Assembly: GCA_023701005.1 (NCBI GenBank)
Contig: JAMPXW010000002.1
Span: 45,347 to 109,346, forward strand
Reading direction: 5' to 3'
Length of the DNA: 64,000 nucleotides
DNA from: Burkholderiales bacterium
Lineage (GTDB): Bacteria; Patescibacteriota; Minisyncoccia; Phycocordibacterales; UBA9973
Below, piece by piece: positions 11,552 to 53,275 of the stretch. Made by a program: the position numbers and the translations under genes. How positions within the stretch are numbered: position 1 is the first letter of the stretch; the number at the start of each line of letters is the position of its first letter. The notes beneath the pieces were generated by a model, which saw only the letters and a list, made by a program, of their open reading frames with translations, made no database searches and was not told the origin of the DNA.

Positions 11552-13270
11552 TTAATAAACCTCCCCATTATAACATTTCTCACAATACACAATTTCAAGT
11601 CGATCAGGAGAATAGGAAGTTTCAAATTCATTGGTACAACCTTCTTTCATGCATTTCCTATGCCATAAATCAACTGGATTTCGTGATTCAAACAATTCAA
11701 AATTTCTGGTATTAGGACATTTTCTTGGTAAAGGAATATTCCATCTTTTATAAACTTCAAGTTCATTTTTTGTAATTCTAAATGCTTTTGTACATTTATG
11801 TTCCTGTGCTTTATTTTTATTTTTATCCCATGCTTCGCAAAGAATTATTTCGTTTAATATTGAATCATCTACATTTTTTATTTCTACTAAATCTTTCCAA
11901 TCTTTTGTTGGAGTATAACTTTTATCTTCATTTTCAATCCATGGATAATTATTTTTACATGCTTCTTCTTTTGTAATTGGCAAATATTCTTGAGCAAGTG
12001 TTTCATTGTAAGCAAAAGGCGAATTTTCAATCGGAAATAATTCTCCGTAAAAATATTTTCTTCCACTCTTATCAATGAAAGGCATCTCTTTCATTTGTTG
12101 TTTTATTTTCTGTACTAATTCTTCATACTCTTCTTTTGTATATTGTTTATTTAAAATGCAATATTCTTTTTTACGTAAAGATATAGAACCAAATATATTT
12201 TTTACGTTAAATGAATCAGCGACATATTCTGTATTAAAATTATTTTCACCATTAACACTAAAAAAAATATCTGACGAAAAATCAACATTGTTTGAATCAT
12301 AGGCTAATTGTCCAGCGTTTACTCCAAAAATATCCATAGAATCTCTTTGTTTGAAACCCCTAACTACATATTTTGTATTTTCACCTTCGTAGGCAAGAAA
12401 AGAGTTATGTACATTTTTGCAATTATAAATAAAATTTCCAGAAACATTATAATTCTGTTCTCCGGCCATAAACTTATGAAAGGCTTTTTGTAAAATTATT
12501 TCTTTAAAAGTTTTTACAGCTTTTTTGAATAATTCATATGAACTAAAAGTTTCATTTTTTATTTTCTCATATTCTTCTTTAGATACTTGTTTGTTAAAAA
12601 CATAAAAATTTTTATTTCTAAGATTATAACTAAACATACAATTCTGACAATTGCGACAATCATACAAAAACATAGAACTGAGACAATTGGTACATTCTTG
12701 ACTGAAATGTACTTCATTACAATTTGTGCAATCTGTAGACGAAAAACAAAATTCACATTTTTTTATAAAAATACTATCCCAACAATCTTTACATTCTGAA
12801 AGAGTTTGCCCATAACCACAATTTTCTGAAAACCAACTACCAAATATTAAATAACTATCTTTCATATGGGCAGTATGATTGCAATATTCACTATTTGTAT
12901 TTGCAGATTCATACAAAGCAGGCTTGGGGACTATTTCTTGTAAAGACTTAAATTGTTGAAAGAATGATTTAGAAAAATCATAATCTCTACCATATTCTGT
13001 CGCATCCCACTTATCACTCCACCAACATTCATGACAATACACAGGAAAAACTGTATTTGGTTTATACATTGAAATTATATTATCTTTACATAAATCACAA
13101 TTCCTTTTATATAAAGATCTTTCATTTCTCCATGCAAGTCTACGAGCAAATCTACATTTCCAGCAAAATGTCGGTGGAGGGACTTTTATCTTTTCATAAA
13201 AATTAAAATCTTCTGGCTCTATGGTGAAGTCACATTTACAATTCTGACAATTTTTAGTTTCTTTTTGCAT
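11552..13270 (-). CDS. Cys-rich zinc-ribbon paralog family protein, copy A (572 aa), function unknown
   Basis: N-terminal 'CQNCKCDFTIEPEDFNFYEKIKVPPPTFCWKCR'. Two internal '...NKQ.SKEEYE' modules. C-terminal 'LWHRKCMKEGCTNEFETSYSPDRLEIVYCEKCY'. It is a paralog of the nine ORFs at 32393-58597. Confidence 0.85.
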   Translation of the reverse strand: MQKETKNCQNCKCDFTIEPEDFNFYEKIKVPPPTFCWKCRFARRLAWRNERSLYKRNCDLCKDNIISMYKPNTVFPVYCHECWWSDKWDATEYGRDYDFSKSFFQQFKSLQEIVPKPALYESANTNSEYCNHTAHMKDSYLIFGSWFSENCGYGQTLSECKDCWDSIFIKKCEFCFSSTDCTNCNEVHFSQECTNCLSSMFLYDCRNCQNCMFSYNLRNKNFYVFNKQVSKEEYEKIKNETFSSYELFKKAVKTFKEIILQKAFHKFMAGEQNYNVSGNFIYNCKNVHNSFLAYEGENTKYVVRGFKQRDSMDIFGVNAGQLAYDSNNVDFSSDIFFSVNGENNFNTEYVADSFNVKNIFGSISLRKKEYCILNKQYTKEEYEELVQKIKQQMKEMPFIDKSGRKYFYGELFPIENSPFAYNETLAQEYLPITKEEACKNNYPWIENEDKSYTPTKDWKDLVEIKNVDDSILNEIILCEAWDKNKNKAQEHKCTKAFRITKNELEVYKRWNIPLPRKCPNTRNFELFESRNPVDLWHRKCMKEGCTNEFETSYSPDRLEIVYCEKCYNGEVY

Positions 13271-32392: not shown

Positions 32393-34108
32393 CTAATACA
32401 CCTCCCCATTATAACATTTCTCACAATACACAATTTCAGGTCGATCAGGAGAATAAGAAGTTTCAAATTCATTAGTGCAGTTTTCTTTCATACATTTCCT
32501 ATGCCAGAGCTTAAGAGGGTTTCTTTGGGATAGTCTATTGTAATGTCTACAGTTAGGACATAAGTGTGGAATGGGTAGATTCATTCTTTTGTAGAATTGA
32601 AGTTCATTTGGAATGATTTTGAAGGCTTCAGTACATTGGTGGTTACATTCTTTATGTTCACATTCTATTACTTTGTTTAATATACTGTCATCTACATCTT
32701 TTATATCATTTGGTATATCTTCTGTTTTAATGTCTATATTGTAGTTTCTTTCTTCTTTGTCTTTCCACTTATATCCTTCCTTTATGGCTTCTTCTTTTGT
32801 TAATGGGAAGTATTCTTGAGCTATGGTTTCATTGTAGGCAAAGGGACTTAATTCTGGTGGGAAGAATTCTCCGTATCTGTATATTCTTCCTTTACTATCT
32901 ATATATGGCATATCATTCATGTGTTGTATTATCTTTGGTATTAGTTCTTCATATTCTTCTTTTGTGTATTGTTTGTTGAGGATGCAGTATTGTTTGTTGC
33001 GGAGAGCGACACAGCCGAAGAGATCATGAGAAGAAATAGAAAGAAACGAATATTTTATATCGTGAGAAGCACGATTTGTCATACCAAACAAAGATCCAGA
33101 TCCTTTAAAAGATGGAGCTACCCCTTCATAAGATGACTCTGTTTGAACTCCACCAAACATGTCCATCGTATCTTTGTTGCCTGCTGAACGAATCACATAT
33201 TTTACATCTTGAGAATTATTAACATTAAAAGAAAAAAGAGCATTCTTTGAATTCTCTATATTATTACCTGAATAATTTACACTATTTAAGGTTTGTATAT
33301 ATTTATGTAGAGTATTTTCTTTTTTTATTTTATTAAATTCTTTCAATAACGTACTTAACGATCTGAAATCACCTATTATAAAATTAGATTTCTTTTCTTC
33401 GTATTCTCCTTTAGAATATTGGACATTACGAATCATGTATTTTTTATTTCTTAAATTTGAAGATAAAAAACAATCTTGGCAATTTGAACAATCAAACAAA
33501 AAAGCTGAATCAATACAACCATTACAATTTTCAAGAAATATACTATTATAATTATTTACTGAATCAGTGTTCTCGTAACACCAAATTAATTTATTACAAA
33601 ATAAGGAATCTAAAACATTTTGACTTTTATCTAAAGCATAAGAATAATCAACATTTTCACAATCCAAAATAGAAGAAGAAAGATAACAATTTTTATCATC
33701 TGTAGAGAAATTAATATAATCAGAATTAATATTATTAAATTTCCAAAGTTGTATTAGTGGAACTTTTTTTACTAAACTTATCCATTGTTCAAAGAAAGGC
33801 TTGTTCCAATCATATTCTAAAAAATAATCTTGGGCATTCCAATCATCTCCCCACCAACATTTATCACAATAAATCTTTGCCTCAAAATCTTGACGATACA
33901 TTGATATAATACCCTTACCACATAAAGCACATTTATTTTTATGAAAGACTCTTTCATTTCTAAAGGTCATTCTCCTTATCATTCTACATTCCGGACAAAA
34001 AGTAGGTGGAGGGACTTTTATTTTCTCATAAAATTTAAAATCTTCAGGCTCTATGGTAAAGTCGCATTTACAATTCTGGCATATTCTTTTTTCATTTTTA
34101 TATTCCAT
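32393..34108 (-). CDS. Cys-rich zinc-ribbon paralog family protein, copy B (571 aa)
   Basis: 'CQNCKCDFTIEPEDFKFYEKIKVPPPTFCPECR' ... 'LRNKQYCILNKQYTKEEYEEL' ... 'LWHRKCMKENCTNEFETSYSPDRPEIVYCEKCYNGEVY'. Confidence 0.85.
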   Translation of the reverse strand: MEYKNEKRICQNCKCDFTIEPEDFKFYEKIKVPPPTFCPECRMIRRMTFRNERVFHKNKCALCGKGIISMYRQDFEAKIYCDKCWWGDDWNAQDYFLEYDWNKPFFEQWISLVKKVPLIQLWKFNNINSDYINFSTDDKNCYLSSSILDCENVDYSYALDKSQNVLDSLFCNKLIWCYENTDSVNNYNSIFLENCNGCIDSAFLFDCSNCQDCFLSSNLRNKKYMIRNVQYSKGEYEEKKSNFIIGDFRSLSTLLKEFNKIKKENTLHKYIQTLNSVNYSGNNIENSKNALFSFNVNNSQDVKYVIRSAGNKDTMDMFGGVQTESSYEGVAPSFKGSGSLFGMTNRASHDIKYSFLSISSHDLFGCVALRNKQYCILNKQYTKEEYEELIPKIIQHMNDMPYIDSKGRIYRYGEFFPPELSPFAYNETIAQEYFPLTKEEAIKEGYKWKDKEERNYNIDIKTEDIPNDIKDVDDSILNKVIECEHKECNHQCTEAFKIIPNELQFYKRMNLPIPHLCPNCRHYNRLSQRNPLKLWHRKCMKENCTNEFETSYSPDRPEIVYCEKCYNGEVY

Positions 34109-34148: not shown

Positions 34149-35867
34149 CTAATACACCTCCTGCTGATAACATTTCTCACAATATATTATTTCTAACCTT
34201 TCTGGAGAATAAGTTGTCTCAAATTCATTATTACATCCATTCTTCATACACTTGCGATGCCAAAGTTTTAATGGATTTCTTAAATTAATACGTTTATAAT
34301 GTCTACAGTTAGGACAAAGTCTAGGGAGAGGTAGATTCATCCTTTTGTAAAATTTTAACTCTTCTGAAACAATCTTAAAAGCTTCTGTGCATTGATCTTT
34401 GCATTTTCCGCCATGCTCACATGCTATAACTTTATTTAATATATCTTCTGAAATATTTTCTACATCGTTTGGTATATCTTCTGTTTTAATATTAATATCA
34501 TAATTTCTAATCTCAGATTCCTTCCAAATATACCCATGTTCTAAAATTTCTTCCTTACTCAAAGGAAAATATTCTTGAGCAATACTTTCATTATAAGCAA
34601 ATGGTGATGCTTCCTTAGGGAAAAATTCACCATACTTATAAACACATCCTTTATTATCAACAAAAGGAACTTCATTCATGTGTTTAATAATTTTAGGTAC
34701 TAATTTTTCATATTCTTCTTTTGTATACTGCCTATTTAAAATACAATATTCTTTCTTATATAAACCTTCACAACCAAAAATATTTAAACAATCATGGCAT
34801 TCTTCTGTATAACGTACGTTTTGATTCGAAAAATTTCTAACACCAAATGCACTATTTGATCCACCAAAACCATGAGCTATTTCATATAAAAATTCAGCAT
34901 TAAAACCCTGGAAAGATGTATCATAACTATCTTTTGTATTATTTCTACTAAAAAATAAATACTTTGAATTTTCAGCTTGTCTAGAACTAAAAGAATTATG
35001 TGTATTTCTAACTTCATACAAGTCATCTCCATCCGAATTAATAGATTTATAAATGTAAGCATATCTATGTGGAATACTAAGTTTTATTTTCTCGAGTTTA
35101 TTCAAAAACTCTTGATGTTTTTCAAAATTATCTAAACTACTTAATTTTATAAATTTTTCATATTCTTCTTTTGTTTTTTGCTCATTAAAAATACAATAAG
35201 ATTTATTAACAAGGCCTACACAACAAAAACAGTTAATACAATTTCTACAATCTATAAGATAACGACTTTCTACACAATCATTGCAATTACGACTAAAAAA
35301 TAAAAGATTTGATCTTGCACATTCAAAAAGTTCATAACTAAATTGAACTTTTTCAGAAAAAGCAACATCTAAAGAATCTTGTGAATCAAAAATTTGATTA
35401 CCAAAATAAACTCTTTCATTATTTATGCCACCAAACAAAAGATAGCACTCTTTCAAATCGAGCCCATAATTACAATACTCACTAGAAATAAAATTCGTTT
35501 GATAAAGATTAGATCTAGGAACTTTTAACTGCAAAGATTTAAATTGTTCAAAAAATGATTTAGAAAAATCATAATCTGTTCCATAATCTAATGGATTCCA
35601 CTTATCTGAAAGCCAACATTCTTTACAATAAACAATAAAAGGTTTTTCTTTGCTATATACGCTAAGTATATTTTTTTTACACAAAAAACACTCACGTCTA
35701 TAAAAAACACGATTATTCCTGAAAAGTAATCTCCTTTGGAATCTACATTCCGGACAAAATGTAGGTGGAGGGACTTTTATTTTCTCATAAAAATTAAAAT
35801 CTTCAGGCTCTATGGTAAAGTCACATTTACAATTCTGACAGTTTTTAATTTCTTGTTTATATTCCAT
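34149..35867 (-). CDS. Cys-rich zinc-ribbon paralog family protein, copy C (572 aa)
   Basis: Same N- and C-terminal modules as copies A and B. Internal 'CVGLVNKSYCIFNEQKTKEEYEK' and 'LYKKEYCILNRQYTKEEYEKL'. Confidence 0.85.
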   Translation of the reverse strand: MEYKQEIKNCQNCKCDFTIEPEDFNFYEKIKVPPPTFCPECRFQRRLLFRNNRVFYRRECFLCKKNILSVYSKEKPFIVYCKECWLSDKWNPLDYGTDYDFSKSFFEQFKSLQLKVPRSNLYQTNFISSEYCNYGLDLKECYLLFGGINNERVYFGNQIFDSQDSLDVAFSEKVQFSYELFECARSNLLFFSRNCNDCVESRYLIDCRNCINCFCCVGLVNKSYCIFNEQKTKEEYEKFIKLSSLDNFEKHQEFLNKLEKIKLSIPHRYAYIYKSINSDGDDLYEVRNTHNSFSSRQAENSKYLFFSRNNTKDSYDTSFQGFNAEFLYEIAHGFGGSNSAFGVRNFSNQNVRYTEECHDCLNIFGCEGLYKKEYCILNRQYTKEEYEKLVPKIIKHMNEVPFVDNKGCVYKYGEFFPKEASPFAYNESIAQEYFPLSKEEILEHGYIWKESEIRNYDINIKTEDIPNDVENISEDILNKVIACEHGGKCKDQCTEAFKIVSEELKFYKRMNLPLPRLCPNCRHYKRINLRNPLKLWHRKCMKNGCNNEFETTYSPERLEIIYCEKCYQQEVY

Positions 35868-35910: not shown

Positions 35911-36774
35911 TTATATCCCTTCCTTTTTAAGTTCTTCTAGAAGTTCTCGGGCTTTTTTGGAAATCTTAGTAGGTATCTTGATATTTATTTTTATATACAA
36001 ATCCCCCGTCTTGCCATTCTTAATAGCCTCGCCATACCCAGACATTTTTAAAGTTTGTCCATTCTGTATACCAGCTGGAACATTTATAGACACTTCTTCT
36101 TCCTGACGCAAGACTCCTTTGCCTTTACAATTTTCACATTTTTCTTTTGGAACAGAACCAGAACCTAAACATTCTTCGCAGATTCTTGTATTAGATATAT
36201 TTCCTAAAATCGTCCTTTTTATTTCGCGAATTTTTCCTTGACCATTACAATACCTACAAGTATCCATCTTTGTACCTGGCTTAGCGCCTGAATTATGACA
36301 AACAGAACAGCTCGAAGTCTTGGTGATTGCTAATTTCCTTGTCACACCTAAAACAGAATCAGACAAAGTTATTTGTATTTCTGTACTTATATCTCGTCCG
36401 CGTCTTTGTTTTACTCCACCACCTCCTCTGTTTCCTGTAAAAAAATCACTAAAAATATCATTCAAATTGCCAAAATCAAAATCACCTCCCTGGAATCCTC
36501 CAGAAAAACCACCAAAATCAAAACCTTCAAAGCCACCACGCCCTCCATAGCCCTGATTCATATTTTCAAAACCAGCCCCAAATTGATCATATTTTGCTCG
36601 TTTTCCGTCATCAGAAAGAACTTGGTAAGCTTCATTTACTTCTTTAAATTTCTTTTCATCCCCTTCTTTTTTGTCAGGATGATATTTATGAGCCAATTTA
36701 TAAAAGGCTTTTTTTATTTCGTCTTTAGATGCATTCTTAGCAACACCTAAAATGTCATAATAATCTTTATTCAT
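35911..36774 (-). CDS. dnaJ: Chaperone DnaJ, short form (287 aa; J-domain, G/F region, CxxCxGxG zinc fingers; lacks most of CTD-II and the dimerisation tail)
   Basis: '[33 protein letters not shown]'. G/F-rich '[21 protein letters not shown]'. Four CxxC(x)GxG motifs. The protein ends soon after 'GDLYIKINI'. Confidence 0.85.
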
Positions 36775-36790
36775 AAGGTTTATATAGCCA

Positions 36791-38260
36791 TTATATCATA
36801 GGTTCCGCTTCTTGAGAAGTTGTATTTTTTGAGCTTTCTTCTGCTAAAGATCCTTTACCTTTTCCTTCAATGATTGCTTTTTCTTCCGCGCTTCTTATGA
36901 TAGTAGCTTCTTCTTCTGCAATAAGTTTCTGAGCATCATCTTTTGAAATAGAATATTTCCTACGAGAAGCTTCTATTATTTCTTTGCGATAAGAAGGATG
37001 TGTAGGGGGCAAAACTCTTAATGTTTCAGCAGAAAATGGATCATAAGATTCACCATCAATCGTCATTTTAATATAAAATTCAGCTACAGCTAAATTAATC
37101 ATATCTTTAACTCCGAAAAGTGGTTCAAATTCTGGTTTTAATTTTACTGCATCTTCTCCACCAACTCTAAAACAAATTATACTTCCCGTGTTTCCAAGCA
37201 CAGCATGTTGAACTTGGGGTAATAATTGTCCTATATATTGATGAGCAATGGTTAAGTTCAGTGCATATTTTCTAGCCTCTGACAAAATGTTTTCAAAAGT
37301 ATGTGTGACTATGTTTTGAAACTCATCTATGTATAAATAAAAATCTCTACGATCTTTTTCTGGTATTGCTGCTCTTTCCATTCCAGCTTGTTTTATTTTT
37401 GTTAAGAACATTGAACCAAAGAAACTTGAATTTTCTTCTCCAATGCGTCCTTTTGAAAGATTAATAAAAATAATTTTACCTTCATTCATTAATTTACTAA
37501 TATCAATTTTATTTTGCTTTTGTCCAAATATATTTCGTAGAAGTGGATCAGACAAAAACTGTCCCAATTTGTTAACAAGAGGAATGATAGCATCTGTATC
37601 GAACTTTTCAGACCAATCAGCAAATTCGATAGCGAAGAATCTTTTAACCATGTCGTCAGTAATATATTCGACTACTTTCTGTCTATAATTTCTATCAGTC
37701 AACATCGATATCATTCCACGCATTGTGGCATGAGGATAATCCAAAAGTGCCAAACAAGTAAAACGAAAAACGTGTTCAAGGCGTGGTGTCCAGTTTGCCC
37801 CGAATTGTTTTTGCAAAACCTCAATCAAGCCTTGGGTCAATTGAAATTTGAAAAGCGGATCGACGTTGGCAAGAGGGTTGAAAGAAGCTGGAAAATCTAC
37901 ATCTCCAGGGTCAATAACACAAACATCTTCTATTCTCTCTTTTGGAATATAATCCAGCATCGCGTCGATAACATCTCCGTGTGGATCAATAAGACAAAGG
38001 CCATGATTGTATGTGACGTCTTGGCGAATAAACAATTCCATTAATTTAGTTTTACCAACACCAGACTTACCAACAATATACAAATGTCTTCTTCTATCTA
38101 TTCTTTTTAGACCAAAAATAAATTTCTTTTCTTCAAGTGAAGCTACATAATTTGTACGCCCGATGAAAGAAACCTCTTCGGGATCTACTTTTCCAAAAAC
38201 AGGAAGTTCTGGTGGAGGTGGCCCATATTTTATTATTTGCACTCGATTTGGCTTCGGCAT
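36791..38260 (-). CDS. VirD4/TraD/HerA-like P-loop ATPase (coupling-protein-like, no TM anchor), copy 1 (489 aa)
   Basis: Walker A '[14 protein letters not shown]'. 'LIDPHGD'. Walker B '[10 protein letters not shown]'. 'LNLTIAHQY'. Paralogous to the 42501..44579 protein. Confidence 0.8.
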
Positions 38261-38323: not shown

Positions 38324-39040
38324 ATGAAAATACATAGATTTATAGATAAATTTGATTTTTCAAAAAATAAAATAGAAATAACAAACCCTGAAATAATCAA
38401 CCAAATAAAGCTTGTTTTAAGGCTAAAAAAGGGAGAAATTATAATTTTATCTGACGGTAAAGGTAAAAGTATAGAAGTAACCCTAGATACAATAAATCCA
38501 AATAAAATTATATGTATTCCAAACAAAGGAAACTCTACTGTAAAGAATGATACTGAAAATAAAAAAGTAAATTTATATTTAGCTATATTGAAAAAAGAAA
38601 ATTTTGAATTATCTGTACAGAAAGCAGTAGAAGTCGGTGTATCAAAAATAATACCTGTAATAACAGAAAGAACTATTAAAACGGGTTTAAATGTAATTCG
38701 TTTAGAAAAAATAATCAAAGAAGCTAGTGAACAATGCGGAAGAGATATATTACCTACACTATCTAATATCTCTAAATTTGAAGACGCCCTAAAAGATGGA
38801 GAAAATTCTGAAGAGAAAATTATTTTTCATATAGACAAAAATATTAATAACAATTTCTATACTCCAAATAAAAAAGCAAAAACTTCAAGCATTTTTATAG
38901 GACCAGAAGGTGGTTTTACGGAGAATGAAATAAAACTAGCTAAAAATTTAAATTATAAAATCAGTTCTCTTGGCTCTCTAACCTTGCGTGGAGAAACAGC
39001 CGCCATAGTAGCTACTTATCGTGCAGTCGAAGGAATTTAA
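38324..39040 (+). CDS. rsmE: 16S rRNA (uracil1498-N3)-methyltransferase RsmE
   Basis: C-terminal SPOUT block 'FIGPEGGFTENEIKLAKNLNYKISSLGSLTLRGETAAIVA'. Confidence 0.8.
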   Translation: MKIHRFIDKFDFSKNKIEITNPEIINQIKLVLRLKKGEIIILSDGKGKSIEVTLDTINPNKIICIPNKGNSTVKNDTENKKVNLYLAILKKENFELSVQKAVEVGVSKIIPVITERTIKTGLNVIRLEKIIKEASEQCGRDILPTLSNISKFEDALKDGENSEEKIIFHIDKNINNNFYTPNKKAKTSSIFIGPEGGFTENEIKLAKNLNYKISSLGSLTLRGETAAIVATYRAVEGI

Positions 39041-40740
39041 TAGACCTCTTTGTTATAACAATTTTCACAATATACTATTTCAGGTCTGTCAGGGGCGTAA
39101 GAAGTTTCAAATTCATTATTACAACCTTCTTTCATGCATTTACGATGCCAGAGGTTACGTGGATTTCTCAACATAAATCTATCAGTACGACGACAAGCAA
39201 AACATTTTTCAGGTATGGGTAAATTTAATATTTTATATAAAGATAATTCTAAAGAAGTAATTTTAAAAGCTGTCGTGCATAGAGGATATTCATCTTTATA
39301 ATCATTTAATTTTTGAGATGAACATTGTATTGCTTCTTCTAAAATATTTTCTTTAATTTCTGAAAAAGTTTTGGGTATTTTTTCTGCAGGGATAAAAATC
39401 TTGTAATCTCTTTCTGGTCTATCGTACCATTTATAGCCCTTTCTTTTAGCTTCTTCTTTATTTAAAGGAAAATAATCTTGAGCCATAGATTCATTGTATG
39501 CAAATGGTGAAAAATTAGCTGGAAAATATTCACCCCACTCTTCTATGTCTATCATATGTTTGATTATTTTTTCTTTTAAAGAAAAATAATCTGATTTAGA
39601 ATATTGTTTATTTAAAATACAATAACTTTTTTTCTTTAAGCCAAAACATCCAAAACAATTTTCTACACCAAAACACATATCACAATAATACGAATCAGTA
39701 ATGGTACCAAAACAACTTCTAATAATCATAGATCTATGTGGTGCTTCAACACCTTGAGCTTCATAAGCTAGCTGTCCAGTAATTATTTCTGTACAATCGC
39801 GGCAATCTTCAGAATCCCATGCATCTTGCATATAAGCAGTATCTTTATTTTTATGACAATTAAAACCAAGTTTCATTCTTTGAGTATTTTCTATATAATC
39901 ACCATTAGACTGTTGAACTTGTACACCATGATAAAATTTTATAGGCATGCTAAGTCTTAATTTAAAAGCTTCTTCTTGTGATTTTTTTATAAAATCTCTA
40001 TCCCATTCAAAATTTTTAACTTTTTTTTCATATTCATCTTTTCCTATATTTTTATTAAAATAAAAATACTGTTTATTTCGAAGACCAACACAACCGAAAC
40101 AATCAGTGCATCCCTTGCAATCATTAGAAAAATAGACATTAACACAGTCAGAACAATCAGAAGACCAAAGACAATGAGAACACTTTTTAATATTAATACA
40201 CTCATAACAGTATTCGCTCTTTTCTGCTAAATAACAATCACTTAAAAAATAACAGCCCCACTGACACCAGCTTCCATACATACATTTTTCATTTGAACCA
40301 CTTGTAACAAGCATATAACAATCTTTATTGTTTTGAGATTGATTTGTATATTCGCTATTTACACTACTAGCATTAACCATAGCCAAATGTGGGACTATAT
40401 CGCGCAACTCTTCGTATTGTTCAAAAAAAGATTTATTAAAATCAAAATCTCTTCCATATTTTACAGCATCAAATTTATCTGATTTCCAATATTCTTGTTT
40501 ATAAACAGGGAAAGAAACATTTTCTCTGTAAATTGAAATTATACTTTCTCCAGTAGCATCACATTTTCTTTTATAAAAGTTATATTCATTTCTATCTAAA
40601 AGCCTACGAATATATCTGCATTCCGGGCAAAATGTCGGTGGAGGGACTTTTATTTTCTCATAAAAAGAGAAGTCATCAGGCTCTATAATAAAGTCACATT
40701 TGCAATTTTTACATATTTTGTTTTCACTTTTGTATTCCAT
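39037..40740 (-). CDS. Cys-rich zinc-ribbon paralog family protein, copy D (567 aa)
   Basis: 'CKNCKCDFIIEPDDFSFYEKIKVPPPTFCPECR' ... 'CVGLRNKQYFYFNKNIGKDEYEK' ... 'LWHRKCMKEGCNNEFETSYAPDRPEIVYCENCYNKEVY'. Confidence 0.85.
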   Translation of the reverse strand: MEYKSENKICKNCKCDFIIEPDDFSFYEKIKVPPPTFCPECRYIRRLLDRNEYNFYKRKCDATGESIISIYRENVSFPVYKQEYWKSDKFDAVKYGRDFDFNKSFFEQYEELRDIVPHLAMVNASSVNSEYTNQSQNNKDCYMLVTSGSNEKCMYGSWCQWGCYFLSDCYLAEKSEYCYECINIKKCSHCLWSSDCSDCVNVYFSNDCKGCTDCFGCVGLRNKQYFYFNKNIGKDEYEKKVKNFEWDRDFIKKSQEEAFKLRLSMPIKFYHGVQVQQSNGDYIENTQRMKLGFNCHKNKDTAYMQDAWDSEDCRDCTEIITGQLAYEAQGVEAPHRSMIIRSCFGTITDSYYCDMCFGVENCFGCFGLKKKSYCILNKQYSKSDYFSLKEKIIKHMIDIEEWGEYFPANFSPFAYNESMAQDYFPLNKEEAKRKGYKWYDRPERDYKIFIPAEKIPKTFSEIKENILEEAIQCSSQKLNDYKDEYPLCTTAFKITSLELSLYKILNLPIPEKCFACRRTDRFMLRNPRNLWHRKCMKEGCNNEFETSYAPDRPEIVYCENCYNKEVY

Positions 40741-40742
40741 GT

Positions 40743-42497
40743 TTAATACACTTCTTTATTATAACAATTTTCACAATATACTATTTCAGGTCTGTCGGGA
40801 GCGTAAGGCGTTTTGAAAGTAGCCAAACATTTACCTTGATGTCCATGACCCTCATTTTCACACATACATTCTCTACGCCAAAGTTTCATTGGATTACGTT
40901 TCTTCAACCTATTCTCATGACGACAATTAAAACAAAATCTCGGTAAAGGAACTCCTAATTTTCTATATAAATTAAATTCATCTAAGATTATTTTATAAGC
41001 TCCCCTACAATATCCACTTTCTGTATCTTTATTTTTACAACCAATAATTTCATTCAAAATTGATTCATCAACATCTCTTAAATCATCAGGCAAATCTACT
41101 GATTCAATAGTCGTCACATATTCACTCACCTTCTTGTCTCTCCACCTATAACCATTTTTTATAGCTTCTTCTTTATTTAAAGGAAAATAATCTTGAGCTT
41201 GAGTTTCGTTGTAACAAAAAGTAGACATTTCTGCAGGGAAAAATTCACCATATTTATAAATTAGACCCCTCTTGTCTATATATGGCATATCGTTCATGTG
41301 TTGTTTTATTTTTGGTATTAATTCTTCATATTCTTCTTTTGTGTATTGTTTATTTAAAATACAATATTTCTTCGTTCGAAGACCTATACATCCAAATATA
41401 TTGTCACAACCATGACAATTGAAAGAATATTCTACATTATTAGAACTATAAACAACACTAGTAAATAAATTACGAAAATTCCCTATTCCTGTATCAAAAG
41501 ACTCATACAATAATTCACCATCTCCAACTCCGGGGCCAGAATCATATGCATCTTTTAAGAAATAAGCTGCCCAATGAATAAATTTACAATCTTCTATTCT
41601 ATTTCCAACTGCATCAAAAGAATATCTACAATTTTTTACACCTTCTAAATTATCCCCCGTTGAATTCATTACTTTATTTTGGTTTGAAAAACGATGCAAA
41701 GATTTTGAATGAATTTCTTTAAATTTTTCTTTCAATTCTTCAACAACTTTATAACTTTTTAAATTTATTTCTGACAATCGGCTTAAATATTCATCCCTAG
41801 AAAGTTGCTCATTCCACATACAATACGATTTATTACGTAAATTTGTGCAACCAAAACAATTTATACAACCATGACAATCATATAGAAAATAAGAATCTAC
41901 ACAACTTTTACAATTGGTAGAGTACAAAGTCTGATAACAATCTGAACAAAATAAGTTTTCATAACAGAGTTCACATCTGTGTGCTACATAAACATCTGAG
42001 CATTCTTTTGTCATTGTTATTCTATTAGAATATAAAGTCCTATCTATTTGCCATGAACCAGAACACAAATAACTATCTTTGCTGCCCTCCGCCACATTAC
42101 AATAATCACTATTAGTGGCTTTTATATTAGAAAGACTTTGTAATGGAATTTTATCTCTCAATTCTTTCCATTGTGTAAAAAATGTTTTAGAAAAATCATA
42201 TTCTTTTCCAAAAGAAACTGCATTCCATTCATCTCCCCACCAATACTTACTATCACAAACGACAACCTCTTCAGAAGGATGAATAAAAGAAACAAGCATC
42301 TCGTTGTGACCTGGAGCATCACATTTTCTTTTAAATAGAGACATTTCATTTCTCCAGCACAGCCTTCTAATAGTCCTACATTCTGGGCAAAATGTCGGAG
42401 GAGGAACCTTTATTTTTTCATAAAATTTAAAATCTTCTGGCTTTAATACAAAGTCTATTTTACAATTCTGGCAAATAATTTTGACTTCGTTTTCCAT
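40743..42497 (-). CDS. Cys-rich zinc-ribbon paralog family protein, copy E (584 aa)
   Basis: 'CQNCKIDFVLKPEDFKFYEKIKVPPPTFCPECR' ... 'CTNLRNKSYCMWNEQLSRDEY' ... 'CIGLRTKKYCILNKQYTKEEYEEL' ... 'PEIVYCENCYNKEVY'. Confidence 0.85.
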   Translation of the reverse strand: MENEVKIICQNCKIDFVLKPEDFKFYEKIKVPPPTFCPECRTIRRLCWRNEMSLFKRKCDAPGHNEMLVSFIHPSEEVVVCDSKYWWGDEWNAVSFGKEYDFSKTFFTQWKELRDKIPLQSLSNIKATNSDYCNVAEGSKDSYLCSGSWQIDRTLYSNRITMTKECSDVYVAHRCELCYENLFCSDCYQTLYSTNCKSCVDSYFLYDCHGCINCFGCTNLRNKSYCMWNEQLSRDEYLSRLSEINLKSYKVVEELKEKFKEIHSKSLHRFSNQNKVMNSTGDNLEGVKNCRYSFDAVGNRIEDCKFIHWAAYFLKDAYDSGPGVGDGELLYESFDTGIGNFRNLFTSVVYSSNNVEYSFNCHGCDNIFGCIGLRTKKYCILNKQYTKEEYEELIPKIKQHMNDMPYIDKRGLIYKYGEFFPAEMSTFCYNETQAQDYFPLNKEEAIKNGYRWRDKKVSEYVTTIESVDLPDDLRDVDESILNEIIGCKNKDTESGYCRGAYKIILDEFNLYRKLGVPLPRFCFNCRHENRLKKRNPMKLWRRECMCENEGHGHQGKCLATFKTPYAPDRPEIVYCENCYNKEVY

Positions 42498-42500
42498 TTT

Positions 42501-44579
42501 TTATTCCAAAATCTTTTTTAAAACATCTTCAGAAACTTCTTTTGTCTCAGTTTTAGGAATATTTTTTACTAAATCATCAAGATTAGAAGGCTCAGGAACT
42601 TTTTCTTCAGAAATTTTGACTTCTTCTTTAATTACTTTATCAGATATAAAATTCTTTAATTTATTCATTTCATCTACACTGGCTGATCTGTCTTTTGTGG
42701 ATGTTGGATGAGTATTTGATTGAGTATTTTTTAATTCACTTAAAGATATCTGTTTTACTTGTACTGGTTTTTCTTTTACTATCTCCTTTTTTATAGCCTC
42801 TGGTTCTTTTTTAGCTAAAGTCTTGTCTAATATTTCTCTTAAAGCTAAATTCTCTTTTGGTTTTTCTTTTGTAAATACCTTCTTAAAAGCAGAAAATATT
42901 TTTGGCTTTACCGGAATAAATGGTTTCTGAATATTGGGCACATTAACATTTTTGATTTCTGCTTCATTGTGTATATTTTTATCTATCCTTTCTGGATACC
43001 TTTCAGCACTATTATTCATTCCATCTTTTTGTTTAAATTCTATACCCAGATCAGCCAATGGTTTATAAAATTTAGATTCATCTTGTTTTATTTGATTTAA
43101 TGAACCTTTTATAGGTTTAACTTCTCCTGATTTTATCTTTGCTATACAATCTCTACAATAGACAGCTCTACCTGCTTCTGGTTTAAAAGGAACAAAAGTA
43201 TCTTTTTTACAAACAGAACATTGTGCGGGAAATTTCTCTACTCCAAGGCCATTGGTATCATCACCCAAAGACATTCCACTCCAATTGTTTATTTCTCTTT
43301 CTACGACTTCTCTCGATCTACAATAAAGTTCACGTGATGATTTGATAACTTCCTCTTCGACTTCTTTATTACCAGATTTTGCCATAGGAGGTAAGGTTTT
43401 TGCCGAAAAAGGACGAGATGTTATACCGTCAATCATTAATTTCAAATAAATTTTAAAGTTAGGCAAACTGACAATATCTTGAGGTGTAAATTCTGGTTCA
43501 AATTCTTTTTCTAAAAATTCTGCATCGTCAGCACCTACTCTAAATATAATCATCGTTCCAACGTTACCAAAAATAGAATCTCTCACACTTGAATTTTTGT
43601 CTGAAACTAATTGTGCAGTATACTGATGCGCCACAGTAAGATTCAATCTGTATTTTCTAGCTTCAGATAATATAGAAGCGAAAGAATCTGTAACGAAATT
43701 TTGGAATTCGTCGACATATAAATAAAAATCTTTTCTTTCATCTTCGGGTATACGGACACGTTCCATGGCAGCAAGTTGAATTTTAGTGATGAGCATACCT
43801 CCCAACAAAGAAGAGTTATCTTCACCGATACGTCCCTTAGAAACATTCACAAGGAATATCTTCCCTTCGTTCATTATGTCAAAGACATTTATTGTACTTT
43901 TTGATTGCCCAACGACATTTCTTATGATTGAAGTAGACAAGAATTGTCCAACTTTATTTTGTATAGGAGCAATAGCTTCATTTCTAAACTTATCTTGCCA
44001 AGCTTCATATTCATGAACCCAAAAAGATTTGATGACTGGATCTTTTAAATTAGAAATTATTTTCTGACGATAGTCTTTATCTACCAACATTCTAGGAATA
44101 CCGAGCATTGTGGTGCCTGGAGTATCAAGTAAAGCCAAAATGGCATTATTCAAAATATATTCCATCCTGGCAGACCAAGCATTGGCCCATATCTTCGTAA
44201 AGATCCCCATAAGTCCAGACGCCACTAAGTGTTTATATTTTGGATCAACTAATTCAAGAACATTAAATCCAATATGATAATCAGGGTCACTAGGATTAAA
44301 ATAGACAACATCTTTCATTCGATGAGGAGGAATAGCACCTAAAACACTTTCGACTAATTCTCCATGCGGGTCGACAACACAAACACCAGAACCATTTTCA
44401 ATATTCTGAACTATCATATTAAACATCAATACAGACTTACCTGTACCAGATTTTCCAAGTATATAAACATGCTGACGTCTATCTTTGCGTTTTATGCCAA
44501 AAAGCTGATTTTTATCTCTATAAGTAGTGAGCCCAATGTATGTAAGATCCTTATTTTTTGGTATCTCTTTGATATCCAT
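42501..44579 (-). CDS. VirD4/TraD/HerA-like P-loop ATPase, copy 2 (692 aa), with a C-terminal zinc ribbon and a K/E-rich low-complexity tail
   Basis: Walker A 'YILGKSGTGKSVLM'. 'VVDPHGE'. Walker B 'FYLYVDEFQN'. 'LNLTVAHQY'. C-terminal 'CSVCKKDTFVPFKPEAGRAVYCRDC', then a K/E/P-rich tail. Confidence 0.8.
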   Translation of the reverse strand: MDIKEIPKNKDLTYIGLTTYRDKNQLFGIKRKDRRQHVYILGKSGTGKSVLMFNMIVQNIENGSGVCVVDPHGELVESVLGAIPPHRMKDVVYFNPSDPDYHIGFNVLELVDPKYKHLVASGLMGIFTKIWANAWSARMEYILNNAILALLDTPGTTMLGIPRMLVDKDYRQKIISNLKDPVIKSFWVHEYEAWQDKFRNEAIAPIQNKVGQFLSTSIIRNVVGQSKSTINVFDIMNEGKIFLVNVSKGRIGEDNSSLLGGMLITKIQLAAMERVRIPEDERKDFYLYVDEFQNFVTDSFASILSEARKYRLNLTVAHQYTAQLVSDKNSSVRDSIFGNVGTMIIFRVGADDAEFLEKEFEPEFTPQDIVSLPNFKIYLKLMIDGITSRPFSAKTLPPMAKSGNKEVEEEVIKSSRELYCRSREVVEREINNWSGMSLGDDTNGLGVEKFPAQCSVCKKDTFVPFKPEAGRAVYCRDCIAKIKSGEVKPIKGSLNQIKQDESKFYKPLADLGIEFKQKDGMNNSAERYPERIDKNIHNEAEIKNVNVPNIQKPFIPVKPKIFSAFKKVFTKEKPKENLALREILDKTLAKKEPEAIKKEIVKEKPVQVKQISLSELKNTQSNTHPTSTKDRSASVDEMNKLKNFISDKVIKEEVKISEEKVPEPSNLDDLVKNIPKTETKEVSEDVLKKILE

Positions 44580-47092: not shown

Positions 47093-48985
47093 TTATTCTT
47101 TTGGCACTTCTCCTTCTTTATTATCCGCATCTCGAACTTCTGCATTTTGTTCTTCTGGTGCAGAAGCTGGAGGAGTTTCGGCTCCGGCTTTATTTAAAGC
47201 TTCACCTATTTTAGACATTTCATTTGAAAGTTCTTCTGTAGCTTTTTTAATAGCTTCAGAATCATTTCCATCTTTTACTCCACGTAATGCTGTTATTTTT
47301 GTATTAACGCCTTCTTTCACATCAGCTGGAATCTTGTCTTCATTATCCTTCAAAGCTTTCTCGGCTGTATAAATAATCATTTCTGCTGTATTTTTTATAT
47401 CAACCATCTCTCTTTTCTTTTTATCTTCTTCAGCATGAACTTCTGCATCTTGTTGCATCTTTTTGATATCTTCTTCCTTGAGTCCAGAACTTGCTTCGAT
47501 TTTAATTGATTGTGCTTTTCCTGAAGCTTTATCCATTGCTTTCACATTCAATATTCCATTAACATCAATATCAAAAGTCACTTCAACTTGAGGCATACCC
47601 CTAGGTGCTGGTGGAATTCCATCCAAAATAAATCTACCCAAAGATTTATTGTCAGAAGCCATTGGACGTTCTCCTTGCACTATATGGATTTCTACAGAAG
47701 TTTGATTATCAGCAGCAGTAGAAAATACTTGAGATTTTGAAGCTGGAATAGTAGTATTTCTTTCTATCAATTTTGTAGCTACTCCTCCTAATGTTTCAAT
47801 ACCAAGAGAAAGTGGAATGACATCCAAAAGCAAAACATCACGAACATCTCCAGCCAATACTCCTGCTTGCACAGCAGCACCCAAGGCTACAACTTCATCA
47901 GGATTAATAGACATATTTGGAGTTTTTCCGAAAAGATTCTTTACAGCCTCCACTATTGCTGGCATTCTAGTCTGACCTCCTACCATTATTATTTCATTTA
48001 TTTCATTCATTTTAAATGGAGAAGCTTCTAGGGCTCTTTTTGTAATAGCAATAGAACGATCTATGTATTCTTTTGCCAAAGATTCTAAAGTGGCACGAGA
48101 CATTTTCAAAAGTAAATGCTTAGGGCCATCTGAATCAGAAGTAATAAATGGAATATTTATCTCTGCTTCCATTGTTGTAGAAAGTTCATGTTTTGCTTTT
48201 TCTGCAGCTTCTTTTAATCTTTGGTGCGCCAATGGATCTTTCCTCACATCTACTCCAGATTCTTTTTTATATTCTTCGGCGATCCAAGTGATTATTTTTC
48301 TATCTATATCTCCACCACCCATATGACTATCTCCATCTGTAGATTTAACTTCTATGACATCATCACCTATCTCTAAAACAGAAACATCAAAAGTTCCTCC
48401 CCCAAAGTCATACACAACTATCTTTTCATTTTTCTTTTTATTAAATCCATAAGCGAGAGCTGCTGCGGTAGGTTCATTTATAATTCTTTTTACATCAAGT
48501 CCAGCTATTTGTCCTGCATCTTTTGTGGCTTTTCTTTGAGCATCATTAAAATAAGCTGGAACAGTGATCACTGCTTCTGTTATTTTTTCTCCGAGCTTTG
48601 CTTCTACGTCTGTTTTTATTTTTTGTAATATCATCGCAGATATTTCTTCTGGACGATAAAACTTTTCAGACATTTTTACTTTTACTCCACCATCTTCTCC
48701 CGTCTCTATTTTAAATGGAGCTGTAGTTTTATCTTTCTGAACTTCTGGATCATCAAATCTATGACCCATATATCTTTTTATTTCAGAAATTGTATTTTCT
48801 GGATTTGTCACAGCTTGTCTTTTAGCCAACAAACCTACAATGCGATCACCGTTTTTTGCTGTTGCTATGACAGAAGGAGTCGTACGATTTCCTTCTACGT
48901 TTTCAATAATCTTTGGTGCCCCTCCCTCTACGAAAGCGACTGCAGAATTTGTTGTACCCAAATCTATACCTATTATTTTTGACAT
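47093..48985 (-). CDS. dnaK: Chaperone DnaK (Hsp70)
   Basis: '[13 protein letters not shown]', '[10 protein letters not shown]' and 'VGGQTRMP' with a full Hsp70 architecture. Confidence 0.95.
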
Positions 48986-51532: not shown

Positions 51533-53275
51533 TTAATAAACTTCTTGTTGATAACAACGTTCACAATAGACTATTTCTTTTCTCTCGGGGGCATAAGAAG
51601 TCTCAAATTCATTATCACATCCCTCTTTCATGCATTTTCTTTTATATAATTTGATTCCATTTCGCATTTTTATGCGTTCGAAATGCCTACAATTAGGACA
51701 AAGTCTAGGAATTGGTATATTCATTCTTTTATAAAAAGAAAGTTCTGTCTCAGTTATTTTAAAAGCTTCTGTACAAGAACCATCACAATTCGATTCAAAA
51801 TGATTATTTTTACTATGATGTAAGCATTCAATGACCTTTCCTATTATACTAGAATCAATGCTTAAAATATCATCAGCTATATCTTCCTGTTTTATATCTA
51901 TTAAATAATTTCTTTTTTCTTCTTCTCTCCATTTATAACCCTTTTCTAAAATCTCACCTTTCATTAAAGGAAAATAATCCTGAGCCAAAGATTCATTGTA
52001 ACAAAAAGGAGACAAGTCAGATGGTAAAAACTCACCATATTTATAAATTACTCCTCTCTTATCTACATACGGAAGATCATTCATATGCTGTTTTATTTTT
52101 GGCAATAATTCTTCATATGCTTCTTTTGTATATTGTTTATTTAAAATACAATATTGTTTATTTCTAAGTCCAGAACAACCAAAAATGTTTGTACATCCAG
52201 TACAACTAAATGAATATTCACAATTTTGACAACCTTTGCTGCAACGATAGTTAAATTTATTATTAAAACAATCAGAACCTACAGAAGAACATTCATAACA
52301 TAATTCAGAATTCTCCCCCCATAAAGTACAATCATAACAATCTTTAAAATTTCGTGTAAAAAAAACTTGTATATATTTACTATCTTCTCCCCCAATTACA
52401 TAATAACTTTGATGAACATTTTTAGAATTATTTATGTATTCACCAGAAACATTATTATTATATCGACCTTCTAAAAATTTTCTTATATTTTTATTTAAAA
52501 TAATATCAGTCTTCCGCTTTGTTTTTTCTAATGCTTCATAAGAACCTAAATTGAAATCCCTAATAAATTTTTCATACTCTCCCTTAGAATATTGTTTATT
52601 AAAAACAAAATACTGCTTATTTCTTAAATTAGTACAACCAAAACAAGAATTACAACCAATTAAATCTCTGGAAAACCACACATCCATGCAGTTTTCACAG
52701 TGAGAAGAAAATAAAGTTCTATAACATTTAGTAAGGGCAAAGGATTGATAACATAATTCAGATGATTCAATTCTAGTTACATCTATTGAATTTTTTGTTC
52801 TATTAATTTCAGCACTATACATTGAATCTTCTGAAATCGCTGCAACAAACACTAAATAACAATTTTTTAAATCATGAGCCCCACTACAATAATCGCTGTT
52901 AACCATATCCCAAGAAGTTTGGCTAGGAATAGGAACATCTAAAAATAATTCTTTTAATTGGATAAAAAAATTTTTATTAAAGTCATATTCTCTACCATAA
53001 TCCAAGCTATTTAATTCATCAGACCACCAAATATCTCTCTCCCAAACTTTAAAGGGTGATTCTTGTGGAACGATAGAAAAAATAGTTTTTCCTGTTTTAT
53101 CACTTATTCTCTTATATAAAACACGATAATCACGAAAAGCCATTCTCCTAATCATCCTACACTCCGGGCAAAATGTAGGTGGAGGAACCTTTATTTTTTC
53201 ATAAAATTTAAAATCTTCTTGCTCGATTATGAAGTCTTTTTTACAATTCTGACATTGTCGGGTTTCGTTTTTCAT
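51533..53275 (-). CDS. Cys-rich zinc-ribbon paralog family protein, copy G (580 aa)
   Basis: 'CQNCKKDFIIEQEDFKFYEKIKVPPPTFCPECR' ... 'CTNLRNKQYFVFNKQYSKGEYEK' ... 'CSGLRNKQYCILNKQYTKEAYEEL' ... 'EIVYCERCYQQEVY'. Confidence 0.85.
   Translation of the reverse strand: MKNETRQCQNCKKDFIIEQEDFKFYEKIKVPPPTFCPECRMIRRMAFRDYRVLYKRISDKTGKTIFSIVPQESPFKVWERDIWWSDELNSLDYGREYDFNKNFFIQLKELFLDVPIPSQTSWDMVNSDYCSGAHDLKNCYLVFVAAISEDSMYSAEINRTKNSIDVTRIESSELCYQSFALTKCYRTLFSSHCENCMDVWFSRDLIGCNSCFGCTNLRNKQYFVFNKQYSKGEYEKFIRDFNLGSYEALEKTKRKTDIILNKNIRKFLEGRYNNNVSGEYINNSKNVHQSYYVIGGEDSKYIQVFFTRNFKDCYDCTLWGENSELCYECSSVGSDCFNNKFNYRCSKGCQNCEYSFSCTGCTNIFGCSGLRNKQYCILNKQYTKEAYEELLPKIKQHMNDLPYVDKRGVIYKYGEFLPSDLSPFCYNESLAQDYFPLMKGEILEKGYKWREEEKRNYLIDIKQEDIADDILSIDSSIIGKVIECLHHSKNNHFESNCDGSCTEAFKITETELSFYKRMNIPIPRLCPNCRHFERIKMRNGIKLYKRKCMKEGCDNEFETSYAPERKEIVYCERCYQQEVY

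Follow-up and report, generated by a model that had tools for sequence, protein, structure and literature searches.

Internal Duplications and Predicted Paired Zinc Fingers in a Multicopy Cysteine-Rich Protein Family of Paceibacteria

Introduction

How is a long, cysteine-rich protein assembled when its two ends resemble each other and its middle repeats itself, and what might such a protein do in a bacterium with a very small genome? This question is raised by a 64,000-nucleotide stretch of a bacterial contig (GenBank assembly GCA_023701005.1, contig JAMPXW010000002.1, positions 45,347 to 109,346 of the forward strand, referred to below as the window), in which ten related genes, named copies A to J, encode proteins of about 570 residues. 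Copy A (11552..13270, minus strand) encodes 572 residues and is deposited as MCM2339181.1 (NDI62_01865) under the name "hypothetical protein." An original prediction made from the letters of the window described the proteins as having homologous N- and C-terminal zinc-ribbon modules, a twice-occurring "KEEYE" module, and variable linkers, the whole arising by an ancient internal duplication of a two-half protein.

The explanation judged best overall, with a probability of roughly 0.6, is that all members share one architecture, abbreviated Zn-M1-M2-L-Zn', in which a predicted pair of zinc fingers at each end encloses two homologous repetitive domains and a conserved linker, and that proteins built on this plan work as scaffolds or adaptors. 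The parts of this explanation differ in strength. The architecture, meaning the domain layout, the fingers, and the duplications, is held with high confidence, and the scaffold or adaptor role is proposed tentatively.

Results

Domain layout of the family

Every member follows the fixed order of a finger pair (Zn, made of N1 and N2), two M domains, a linker (L), and a second finger pair (Zn', made of C1 and C2). In copy A, the domains lie as follows:

13121..13258, minus strand: finger N1, residues 5 to 50, zf_Tbcl type, putative ligands C8, C11, C36, and C39
13001..13120, minus strand: finger N2, residues 51 to 90, zf_Tbcl_2 type (CxxC-x17-CxxC), putative ligands C58, C61, C79, and C82
12548..12967, minus strand: M1, residues 102 to 241, with a head helix, a beta-rich repetitive body (124 to 229), and a "KEEYE" tail helix
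12566..12622, minus strand: first "KEEYE" motif, LRNKNFYVFNKQVSKEEYE, residues 217 to 235
12101..12523, minus strand: M2, residues 250 to 390, homolog of M1
12122..12178, minus strand: second "KEEYE" motif, LRKKEYCILNKQYTKEEYE, residues 365 to 383
11840..12100, minus strand: linker L, residues 391 to 477, conserved and acidic (YGEFFP...SPFAYNET.AQ.YFP), matched by no other part of the protein
11666..11839, minus strand: finger C1, residues 478 to 535, homolog of N1, with C478, C493, C518, and T521 (CPNTR) in copy A
11555..11665, minus strand: finger C2, residues 536 to 572, homolog of N2 (Cx4C-x17-CxxC), putative ligands C540, C545, C563, and C566

This layout was shared by 170 of 170 complete family open reading frames (ORFs) in 85 related loci covering 1.6 Mb of related DNA. 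Exceptions were ORFs truncated by a contig end or a frameshift and a single complete ORF in which the C module scored highest with the hidden Markov model (HMM) of the N module. The best 150 of 5,534 representative matches were likewise single full-length matches, 145 of them 523 to 612 residues long and five 428 to 483. Some relatives are broken up between two neighboring ORFs, N-M1-M2 and then M2-L-C or L-C (as at L038:16312-18051 and L053:18824-20584), and these look like frameshifts, pseudogenes, or assembly errors.

Two duplications inside one protein

Modules were compared profile to profile with hhalign, using a 100-sequence alignment in which the N module was residues 1 to 90 and the C module residues 466 to 572. 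The two modules aligned over 74 columns with a probability of 98.9% and an E value (E) of 1.1e-17. With every Cys masked to X, E was still 9.8e-10 over 71 columns. Control runs with 20 column-shuffled templates reached an E of 8e-4 at best, with a median of 0.14. Single sequences gave the same result, as the N module of copy B matched its own C module by BLASTP (E 5e-14, 30% identity over 82 residues). An HMM of the N module found the C module in 10 of 10 copies (domain E 1.4e-3 for copy J and 1e-15 to 1e-7 for the other nine), and the reverse search with the C-module HMM found the N module at E 1e-12 to 4e-6. The motifs common to both modules include F-x-I, E-x2-FY-x-K, P-x-P, R-x3-RN, and VYC. 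The claim that the terminal modules are homologous thus holds in all ten copies and goes beyond a coincidence of Cys spacing.

Homology within the modules was collinear. N1 matched C1 (E 1e-15) and N2 matched C2 (E 7e-6), the four cross pairs gave E of at least 0.017, and the two-finger unit was therefore duplicated whole.

The middle of the protein holds a separate repeat. M1 and M2 aligned over 139 columns with a probability of 99.8% and E 1.2e-27, or E 5e-25 with Cys masked, and the control comparisons N/M1, N/M2, C/M1, C/M2, N/L, and C/L all gave E of at least 0.036. The "KEEYE" motif does occur twice, as had been noticed, but it is only the tail of this domain of about 140 residues. Judged from these profiles, both the N/C and the M1/M2 duplications are real and old, and the ancient internal duplication that had been proposed is borne out by a layout common to all 170 complete ORFs.

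The order of the parts does not follow that of a protein doubled end to end. No remnant of a finger was detected between M1 and M2 by hhalign (N versus M2, E 0.18; C versus M2, E 0.33), and the same method gave no counterpart of L in the first half. The picture of a duplicated two-half protein is correct in that both modules are present twice and are old, but the order is the mirror-like Zn-M1-M2-L-Zn' instead of Zn-M-Zn-M; at least two duplication events are therefore needed, or one followed by relocation or permutation. At least two events, one doubling M in tandem and another doubling the finger pair, would give the present plan, the alternative being a single duplication that was later permuted. 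A weak match to phrog_15341, a phage protein family of unknown function, covers the M1-M2 core alone (copy F residues 128 to 361, E 1.2e-5; M region of copy J, E 3e-5). It hints that the double M core can exist without fingers, which would favor independent accretion of the parts.

Terminal modules resemble paired treble-clef fingers

The type of the terminal modules was approached through family models and predicted structures. The zf_Tbcl_2 model PF23477 matched 17 of 68 members (best E 8e-10), and the zf_Tbcl model PF13451 matched 9 of 68 at E<0.1 (best E 8.4e-6). Most of these matches have to be read against the cut-offs of the models (24 bits for PF13451, 27 bits for PF23477, and 36 bits for TIGR04272). 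N1 of copy F (residues 7 to 44) scored 17.5 bits against PF13451 (E 0.004), which is under the cut-off, and copy A had no PF13451 match; against PF23477, copy A scored 15.3 bits at full length and 19.3 bits as an isolated module, and against TIGR04272 it scored 12.6 bits. Precomputed Pfam domains list PF13451 for relatives P0061 and P0103. A firmer anchor comes from an ATPase encoded next to copy F, whose own finger scored 40.5 bits, above both the Pfam and NCBIfam cut-offs, and matched N2 by hhalign at E 7e-19.

AlphaFold models of copies A and G had predicted local distance difference test (pLDDT) scores of 83 and 87 and predicted template modeling (pTM) scores of 0.85 and 0.88. In both models, all four sites are built alike, the first ligand pair sitting in a loop between strands and the second in the first turn of a helix. 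In N1, for example, C8 and C11 lie between strands 4-7 and 14-17, and C36 and C39 begin helix 37-45; C1 is alike. A classical zinc ribbon, which needs the knuckles of two beta-hairpins, was rejected because the second pair lies at the N terminus of an alpha-helix at all four modeled sites. Pfam zinc-ribbon models gave only E 0.39 to 1.2 against the terminal modules. Taken together, sequence and models indicate that each terminus carries two Cys4 treble-clef fingers, one of zf_Tbcl type and then one of zf_Tbcl_2 type. The structure prediction that had been suggested as a way of finding paired zinc ribbons thus returned treble-clef finger pairs, and the name "zinc ribbon" was not upheld.

A census of ligand positions in 249 non-identical members separated obligatory from dispensable sites. 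All four Cys were present in N1 of 242 members (of the other seven, four lacked the first pair in the alignment, two read CCYC, and one was gapped) and in C2 of 242, with other patterns in seven. N2 kept all four in 180 members, and the other 69 had lost three or four ligands together. In C1, 154 members read CCCC, 70 read CCCT (the clade of copy A), 8 read CCCS, and about 13 had lost the site. Block losses were also seen in the window, of N2 in copies D, E, G, and J and of C1 in copies H and J. Loss of N2 and C1 as blocks is how real ligand sets should behave. This pattern points to at most four zinc sites per protein, with the outermost fingers N1 and C2 obligatory and the inner fingers N2 and C1 dispensable. 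Counting conserved Cys columns, as had been proposed for estimating the number of zinc sites, gives too high a figure, as ligand-set behavior is confined to the four terminal sites. In the proposed mechanism, zinc would be structural and would hold up to four small fingers at the termini. Two small proteins of Methanosarcina mazei with the same CxxC-x17-CxxC spacing were purified and shown by inductively coupled plasma mass spectrometry to bind zinc (PMC12704099).

Cysteine-phased bodies of the M domains

The proteins contain 24 to 43 Cys each (mean, 33.8), and within the M domains these follow a strict rule. In M1 (residues 124 to 226), 98.9% of 2,899 Cys fell in one of the three residue phases, and in M2 (residues 272 to 377), 94.9% of 1,544 Cys did so. 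Autocorrelation of the sequence peaked at every multiple of 3 and was highest at 12, and the M bodies are built from a 12-residue unit that has a small residue (Cys, Ser, Ala, Gly, or Val) at every third position. Each M domain ends in a conserved last turn followed by the "KEEYE" helix.

In-phase columns freely interchange Cys, Ser, Ala, Gly, Val, Ile, and Leu, the exception being C205, C208, and C211 in the last turn of M1, which are 91 to 99% conserved and are followed by Cys or Ser at position 214. The corresponding M2 turn mostly has Ser, Leu, or Ile at its two middle positions. The number of Cys in M2 is 2 in copies A and B, 12 in G, and 14 in J, and many members have 1 or 2. Presence of Cys at neighboring M columns was weakly correlated, and zinc quartets inside the M domains were rejected as a candidate after column-to-column correlation gave no clear quartets. 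Being in phase and freely swapped, the M-domain Cys are therefore best seen as small core residues of a tight coil and not as metal ligands, with C205/C208/C211 a possible exception, and the M bodies look like narrow beta-solenoids whose cores are packed by in-phase Cys and Ser.

Conserved frame and variable bodies

Comparison of identities within and between paralogs showed where the family varies. N1, C2, and the M2 tail were 63 to 66% identical between paralogs. The linker was 46% identical between window paralogs and 58 to 70% within ortholog clades, and the solenoid bodies fell to 27 to 29% between paralogs and rose to 57 to 72% within ortholog clades. The linkers, which had been described as variable, are thus conserved, and it is the solenoid bodies that differ from copy to copy. 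Charge also differs along the protein, with a mean net charge of +5.6 (pI 9.8) for C1 and -6.2 for L.

A possible scaffold or adaptor role

The main reason for proposing a modular scaffold or adaptor is this contrast between a common frame and paralog-specific solenoid surfaces. The shared ends (fingers, M tails, and L) would dock a common partner, which may be a nucleic acid or a protein carrying the same type of finger, and the solenoid surface of each paralog would recognize its own target. Nucleic acid is a candidate partner because C1 is strongly basic.

Several observations weigh against this explanation as a whole. The adaptor role draws only on patterns of conservation, and the charge of C1 is weak evidence for nucleic acid binding. 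Searches of Pfam, NCBIfam, PADLOC, and the PDB gave no homolog of known function, and PHROGs gave no family of known role, only phrog_15341. The C205/C208/C211 turn could be a fifth metal site, at odds with an M1 in which Cys serve only for packing. Confidence in the Cys-phased repeats was lower than elsewhere in copy A (pLDDT 56 to 66 at residues 140 to 200 and 320 to 370; 73 to 81 in copy G), and the first half of M2 in the copy A model was built from long strands instead of short ones, which makes the solenoid geometry provisional.

Copies in the window

A six-frame domain-HMM search of the window found exactly ten copies and no fragment. The nine besides copy A are:

32393..34108, minus strand: copy B, 571 residues, NDI62_01975
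34149..35867, minus strand: copy C, 572 residues, NDI62_01980
39037..40740, minus strand: copy D, 567 residues, Cys of finger N2 gone
40743..42497, minus strand: copy E, 584 residues, N2 lost, His-rich insertion in the first knuckle of C2
44613..46301, minus strand: copy F, 562 residues, NDI62_02015
51533..53275, minus strand: copy G, 580 residues, N2 lost, Cys-rich M2
53277..54974, minus strand: copy H, 565 residues, finger C1 lost in both knuckles
55088..56869, minus strand: copy I, 593 residues, 20-residue insertion in the first knuckle of C2
56915..58597, minus strand: copy J, ORF of 560 residues (555 in NCBI, NDI62_02055), most divergent, N2 and C1 lost

Pairwise identities among the ten were 29 to 52%, with J the outlier. 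NCBI locus tags of the NDI62 series were assigned by exact protein match for copies A, B, C, and F and for the ATPase; copy J matched from a later start codon, 5 residues downstream of the ORF start. An eleventh member on the same 267,744-bp contig of this metagenome-assembled genome (NDI62_02115, also P0099; 572 residues, 54% identical to A) lies, by locus-tag numbering, about 12 genes past copy J and beyond the right end of the window.

The individual peculiarities listed in the original prediction were all borne out: the C-terminal modules of copies E and I contain insertions, copy H lacks the CPNC cysteines, and copy J is the most divergent by pairwise identity. Both insertions, "EGHGHQGK" in E and about 20 residues (VESSNKEYKNTIKHDHGDNP) in I, are sited between the two ligand Cys of the first C2 knuckle and are His-rich, and both copies have an extra Cys (CMC). 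None of the ten copies has a hydrophobic segment or signal peptide (maximum Kyte-Doolittle mean over 19 residues, 1.51), and the proteins are therefore taken to be soluble and cytoplasmic.

Family size, spread, and age

The family is large. Among 90%-identity clusters, 7,984 of the best 8,000 candidates were significant, and a 50%-identity library held 5,534 clusters at E<=1e-3 and 2,265 at E<=1e-30. More than 559 stretches were found in species-representative genomes. Among the best 80 stretches, those named by lineage belonged to Parcubacteria or Paceibacteria groups (Nomura-, Lipton-, Staskawicz-, Jorgensen-, and Giovannonibacteria, Minisyncoccia, and others); about one-quarter carried the automatic label "uncultured Candidatus Saccharibacteria" and others were called only "bacterium." Among these best matches, the family appears restricted to Paceibacteria. 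The organism name of the window itself, "Burkholderiales bacterium," looks wrong, as Paceibacteria (Patescibacteria) are indicated instead by gene content, by a GC content of about 30%, and by every close relative.

Of the 85 loci, 46 held between two and eight copies in a span of about 20 kb. The best orthologs elsewhere were 90% identical for A, 79% for C and J, 72% for E, 68% for H, and 64% for D. With window copies only 29 to 52% identical to each other and orthologs elsewhere at 64 to 90%, the paralogs must be old.

Nearly all named members are called "hypothetical protein," with one "zinc-ribbon domain containing protein," and a literature search found no description of the family. The PADLOC anti-phage defense library gave no match to it. 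With regard to a phage or mobile origin, no relative was found in IMG/VR, and full-length copy B had no tblastn match among GenBank phages.

Genomic neighborhood

The window consists of ordinary chromosomal DNA and includes housekeeping genes. Copy A is flanked by scpA-scpB and mraY-ftsW-murG at distances of 32 and 18 nucleotides, and the slot between scpB and mraY is filled by a family member in seven related loci. Synteny with mraY was rejected as a rule for the A clade, as it holds in 2 of 8 A-clade loci and the window. The nine other copies are interleaved with chaperone genes and with two soluble VirD4/TrwB-like ATPases:

42501..44579, minus strand: longer ATPase, soluble and VirD4/TrwB-like, with a zf_Tbcl_2 finger at residues 449 to 481 above the Pfam cut-off
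36791..38260, minus strand: shorter ATPase, VirD4/TrwB-like, directly upstream of dnaJ
58554..59165, minus strand: grpE
47093..48985, minus strand: dnaK
35911..36774, minus strand: dnaJ, only 287 residues

Both ATPases are VirD4/TrwB/HerA-like, lack an N-terminal membrane segment, and match phrog_5156 (E 5e-65 and 1e-51) and the PADLOC model "mad8" (E 4e-16 and 6e-11); the longer one continues after its finger into a Lys/Glu-rich tail of about 200 residues. Copy F, the longer ATPase, copy E, and copy D follow each other at gaps of 33, 3, and 2 nucleotides. An ATPase of this type occurred within 10 kb at 23 of the 85 family-centered loci, usually directly adjacent, and those 23 loci also had DnaK in 13 cases, DnaJ in 10, and GrpE in 7. 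The order grpE-[J]-...-paaX-dnaK-ATPase(finger)-[family]-ATPase-dnaJ-[family] recurred in many species-level genomes.

The reverse test was narrower. Only 10 of 80 ATPase-centered metagenome loci contained a family member, all among the closest ATPase relatives, and more distant ATPases had a different gene neighborhood. On these counts, association with the ATPase was rejected as a general rule; it is real, is limited to one clade, and may reflect inherited gene order. In the candidate phyla radiation (CPR), only 148 of 5,713 reported VirD4 homologs lie near virB4, and exaptation has been suggested (10.1101/2025.01.22.634366).

In the window, grpE, dnaK, and dnaJ are spread over 23 kb (35911 to 59165), with family members, both ATPases, an ABC transporter, a PnuC-like gene, and a divergent PaaX-like regulator in between, and this interrupted arrangement recurs in many related genomes. 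The copy J ORF overlaps the 3' end of grpE by 44 nucleotides, and at five other loci (L032, L051, L056, L059, and L075) a J-type ortholog comes immediately after grpE. Directly upstream of grpE is a Fic/DOC-family protein with Fic_N, Fic, and SoFic-like C domains (59230 to 60414, minus strand). After the dnaJ-[family] pair comes a conserved 196-residue ORF with no Pfam match (31769 to 32359, minus strand), as it does in at least six related loci. The minus strand carries nearly all genes of the window, and GC skew is below zero, except for a plus-strand block at 24 to 30 kb (dnaB, an AI-2E transporter, cysS, and a lyase) where skew is near zero or positive. The 64-kb window has no tRNA gene.

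Discussion

Weighing the alternatives

The competing accounts of the architecture can be judged largely from the comparisons above. If the likeness of the two termini were a chance spacing of Cys between unrelated small fingers, as their Cys-rich character and weak matches to generic zinc-finger models (LIM and Zn_ribbon) might suggest, masking Cys should not have left a match far better than the best shuffled template, nor should the two ends of copy B align by BLASTP; this account is refuted and carries a negligible probability. Tandem duplication of a Zn-M half into Zn-M-Zn-M, followed by rearrangement, would explain why each kind of element is present exactly twice and why M1 is adjacent to M2, and a circular permutation that later affected the second half and made L the new connector could in principle give the observed order. 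It is decidedly unlikely given that no finger-like stretch lies between M1 and M2, that L is unmatched in the first half, and that an intermediate layout was seen in none of the 170 complete ORFs. Somewhat better placed, though still unlikely, is the idea that the in-phase M Cys ligate additional metals or Fe-S clusters and that the protein serves to store, buffer, or transfer metal or electrons. The abundance of Cys, CxxC pairs at intervals of 9 to 12 residues, the conserved C205-x2-C208-x2-C211(-x2-C214) turn, and a weak match to a protein of a Campylobacter phage that has Cys at each third position all fit such a function. In every M Cys column other than those of C205, C208, and C211, however, Cys is freely exchanged for Ser, Val, Ile, Leu, Ala, or Gly; M2 falls to one or two Cys in many members, including A and B; its equivalent of the conserved turn is mostly Ser, Leu, or Ile; correlation between neighboring Cys is weak; and no Pfam Fer4 or radical-SAM match was obtained.

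Other proposals concern the partners of the family and draw on gene neighborhoods. As substrates, adaptors, or regulators, members could be functional partners of the orphan VirD4-like ATPases found in Paceibacteria, and the Hsp70 system may also take part, although this proposal is rather unlikely. It gains from the proximity of an ATPase at more than one-quarter of the family-centered loci, from the recurring grpE/dnaK/dnaJ order and the tight spacing of F, ATPase, E, and D, from the ATPase finger being of the same type as N2, and from the fact that most CPR homologs of VirD4 lie away from virB4. It loses because the reverse test recovered only the closest ATPase relatives, because many members, including copy A, are elsewhere, beside mraY or in unrelated contexts, and because gene order conserved in one clade can be inherited without functional meaning. 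A polymer-forming, bactofilin-like cytoskeletal scaffold in cell division or wall synthesis would suit the position of copy A between scpB and mraY-ftsW-murG and the occupied slot in related loci, and cytoplasmic beta-solenoids such as bactofilins polymerize. It is very unlikely nonetheless, as most A-clade orthologs are away from mraY, there is no Pfam bactofilin match, and terminal fingers would cap both ends of the solenoid. A more detailed speculation is a long shot: the paralogs could be specific adaptors whose finger ends dock the orphan VirD4-type ATPase and whose solenoid faces present clients, tied to the grpE-dnaK-dnaJ operon, or the Cys ladder could hold a column of metal ions. The shared Zn-M1-M2-L-Zn' plan with a tentative scaffold or adaptor function remains the preferred explanation.

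Internal duplication alone would be an ordinary finding. What makes the family notable is its size, age, and copy number in streamlined genomes, the rule of Cys at every third residue, and the link to VirD4-like ATPases. Genomes of Paceibacteria are very small, yet this contig holds at least 11 old and individually conserved copies, the ten in the window taking up about 17 kb, or 27% of its length. In one clade, the family is tied to the unexplained orphan VirD4-like ATPases of the CPR, which, if the tie is functional, would provide a handle on both. The domain plan is a starting point for designing constructs, metal analyses, and partner screens.

Comparison with known systems

Both finger types belong to known Pfam domains, and beta-solenoids form an established fold class. 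No curated family or solved structure was matched by the M domain, by the linker, or by the architecture as a whole. Candidates containing Cys-rich motifs were considered and set aside. The 4Fe-4S ferredoxin motif CxxCxxCxxxCP differs from the M1 tail, which reads CxxCxxCxxC/S without CP, and no Fer4 match was found. The DnaJ cysteine-rich domain, with four CxxCxGxG repeats, was rejected because no Gly pattern follows CxxC in the family and PF00684 matches only the true DnaJ (35911-36774).

The phage protein mentioned above, CPt10_1641 of Campylobacter phage CPt10 (L086:1381-1806), has 141 residues with Cys at every third position for about 90 residues (CKDCLNCFNCVDCYKC...), and its depositors noted insect-antifreeze Pfam matches. 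It matched the M1 region of copy F weakly by tblastn (E 3e-3); alignment with it by hhalign was not credible (10 low-confidence columns), and the resemblance is therefore taken as compositional.

For the M domains, the closest known systems include curli CsgA-type beta-solenoids (PDB 8c50 and 8enq) and the Tenebrio molitor antifreeze protein (PDB 1EZG; PF02420), a Cys-rich beta-helix with a 12-residue repeat whose length and phase agree with M. Homology to the latter was rejected, as M1 reached an hhalign probability of 14% against the TmAFP sequence and no copy matched PF02420, whose repeat model reads TCTxSxxCxxAx, at E<=1. The antifreeze protein is also secreted and disulfide bonded, in contrast to the M domains, which are predicted to be cytoplasmic, lack a Thr ladder, and have helices and fingers as their flanks.

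For the terminal modules, the relationships are closer. N1 and C1 resemble zf_Tbcl (PF13451, "probable treble clef domain") in the pattern CxxC ... F-x-I ... E-x2-FY-x-K ... P-x-P-x2-CPxCR, but most family members, including A, score under its gathering threshold, and here the domain is always fused to zf_Tbcl_2, with the pair present twice per protein. N2 shares with PF23477/TIGR04272 the exact CxxC-x17-CxxC spacing and the ...P..VYC..C signature; C2 differs in its wider first knuckle (Cx4C) and in the insertions of E and I, and N2 is degenerate in 28% of members. LIM domains, which bind proteins through two consecutive zinc fingers, are alike in placing two adjacent Cys4-type sites in one compact module, and C2 gave E 0.006 against Pfam LIM and E 0.01 against CRP structures, with only LIM-like matches (E of at least 0.01) in a profile search of the PDB; every one of these matches was under threshold. 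The module of this family is longer, at about 75 residues versus 55, and its spacing and ligand pattern differ, so that LIM offers an analogy of design, not membership.

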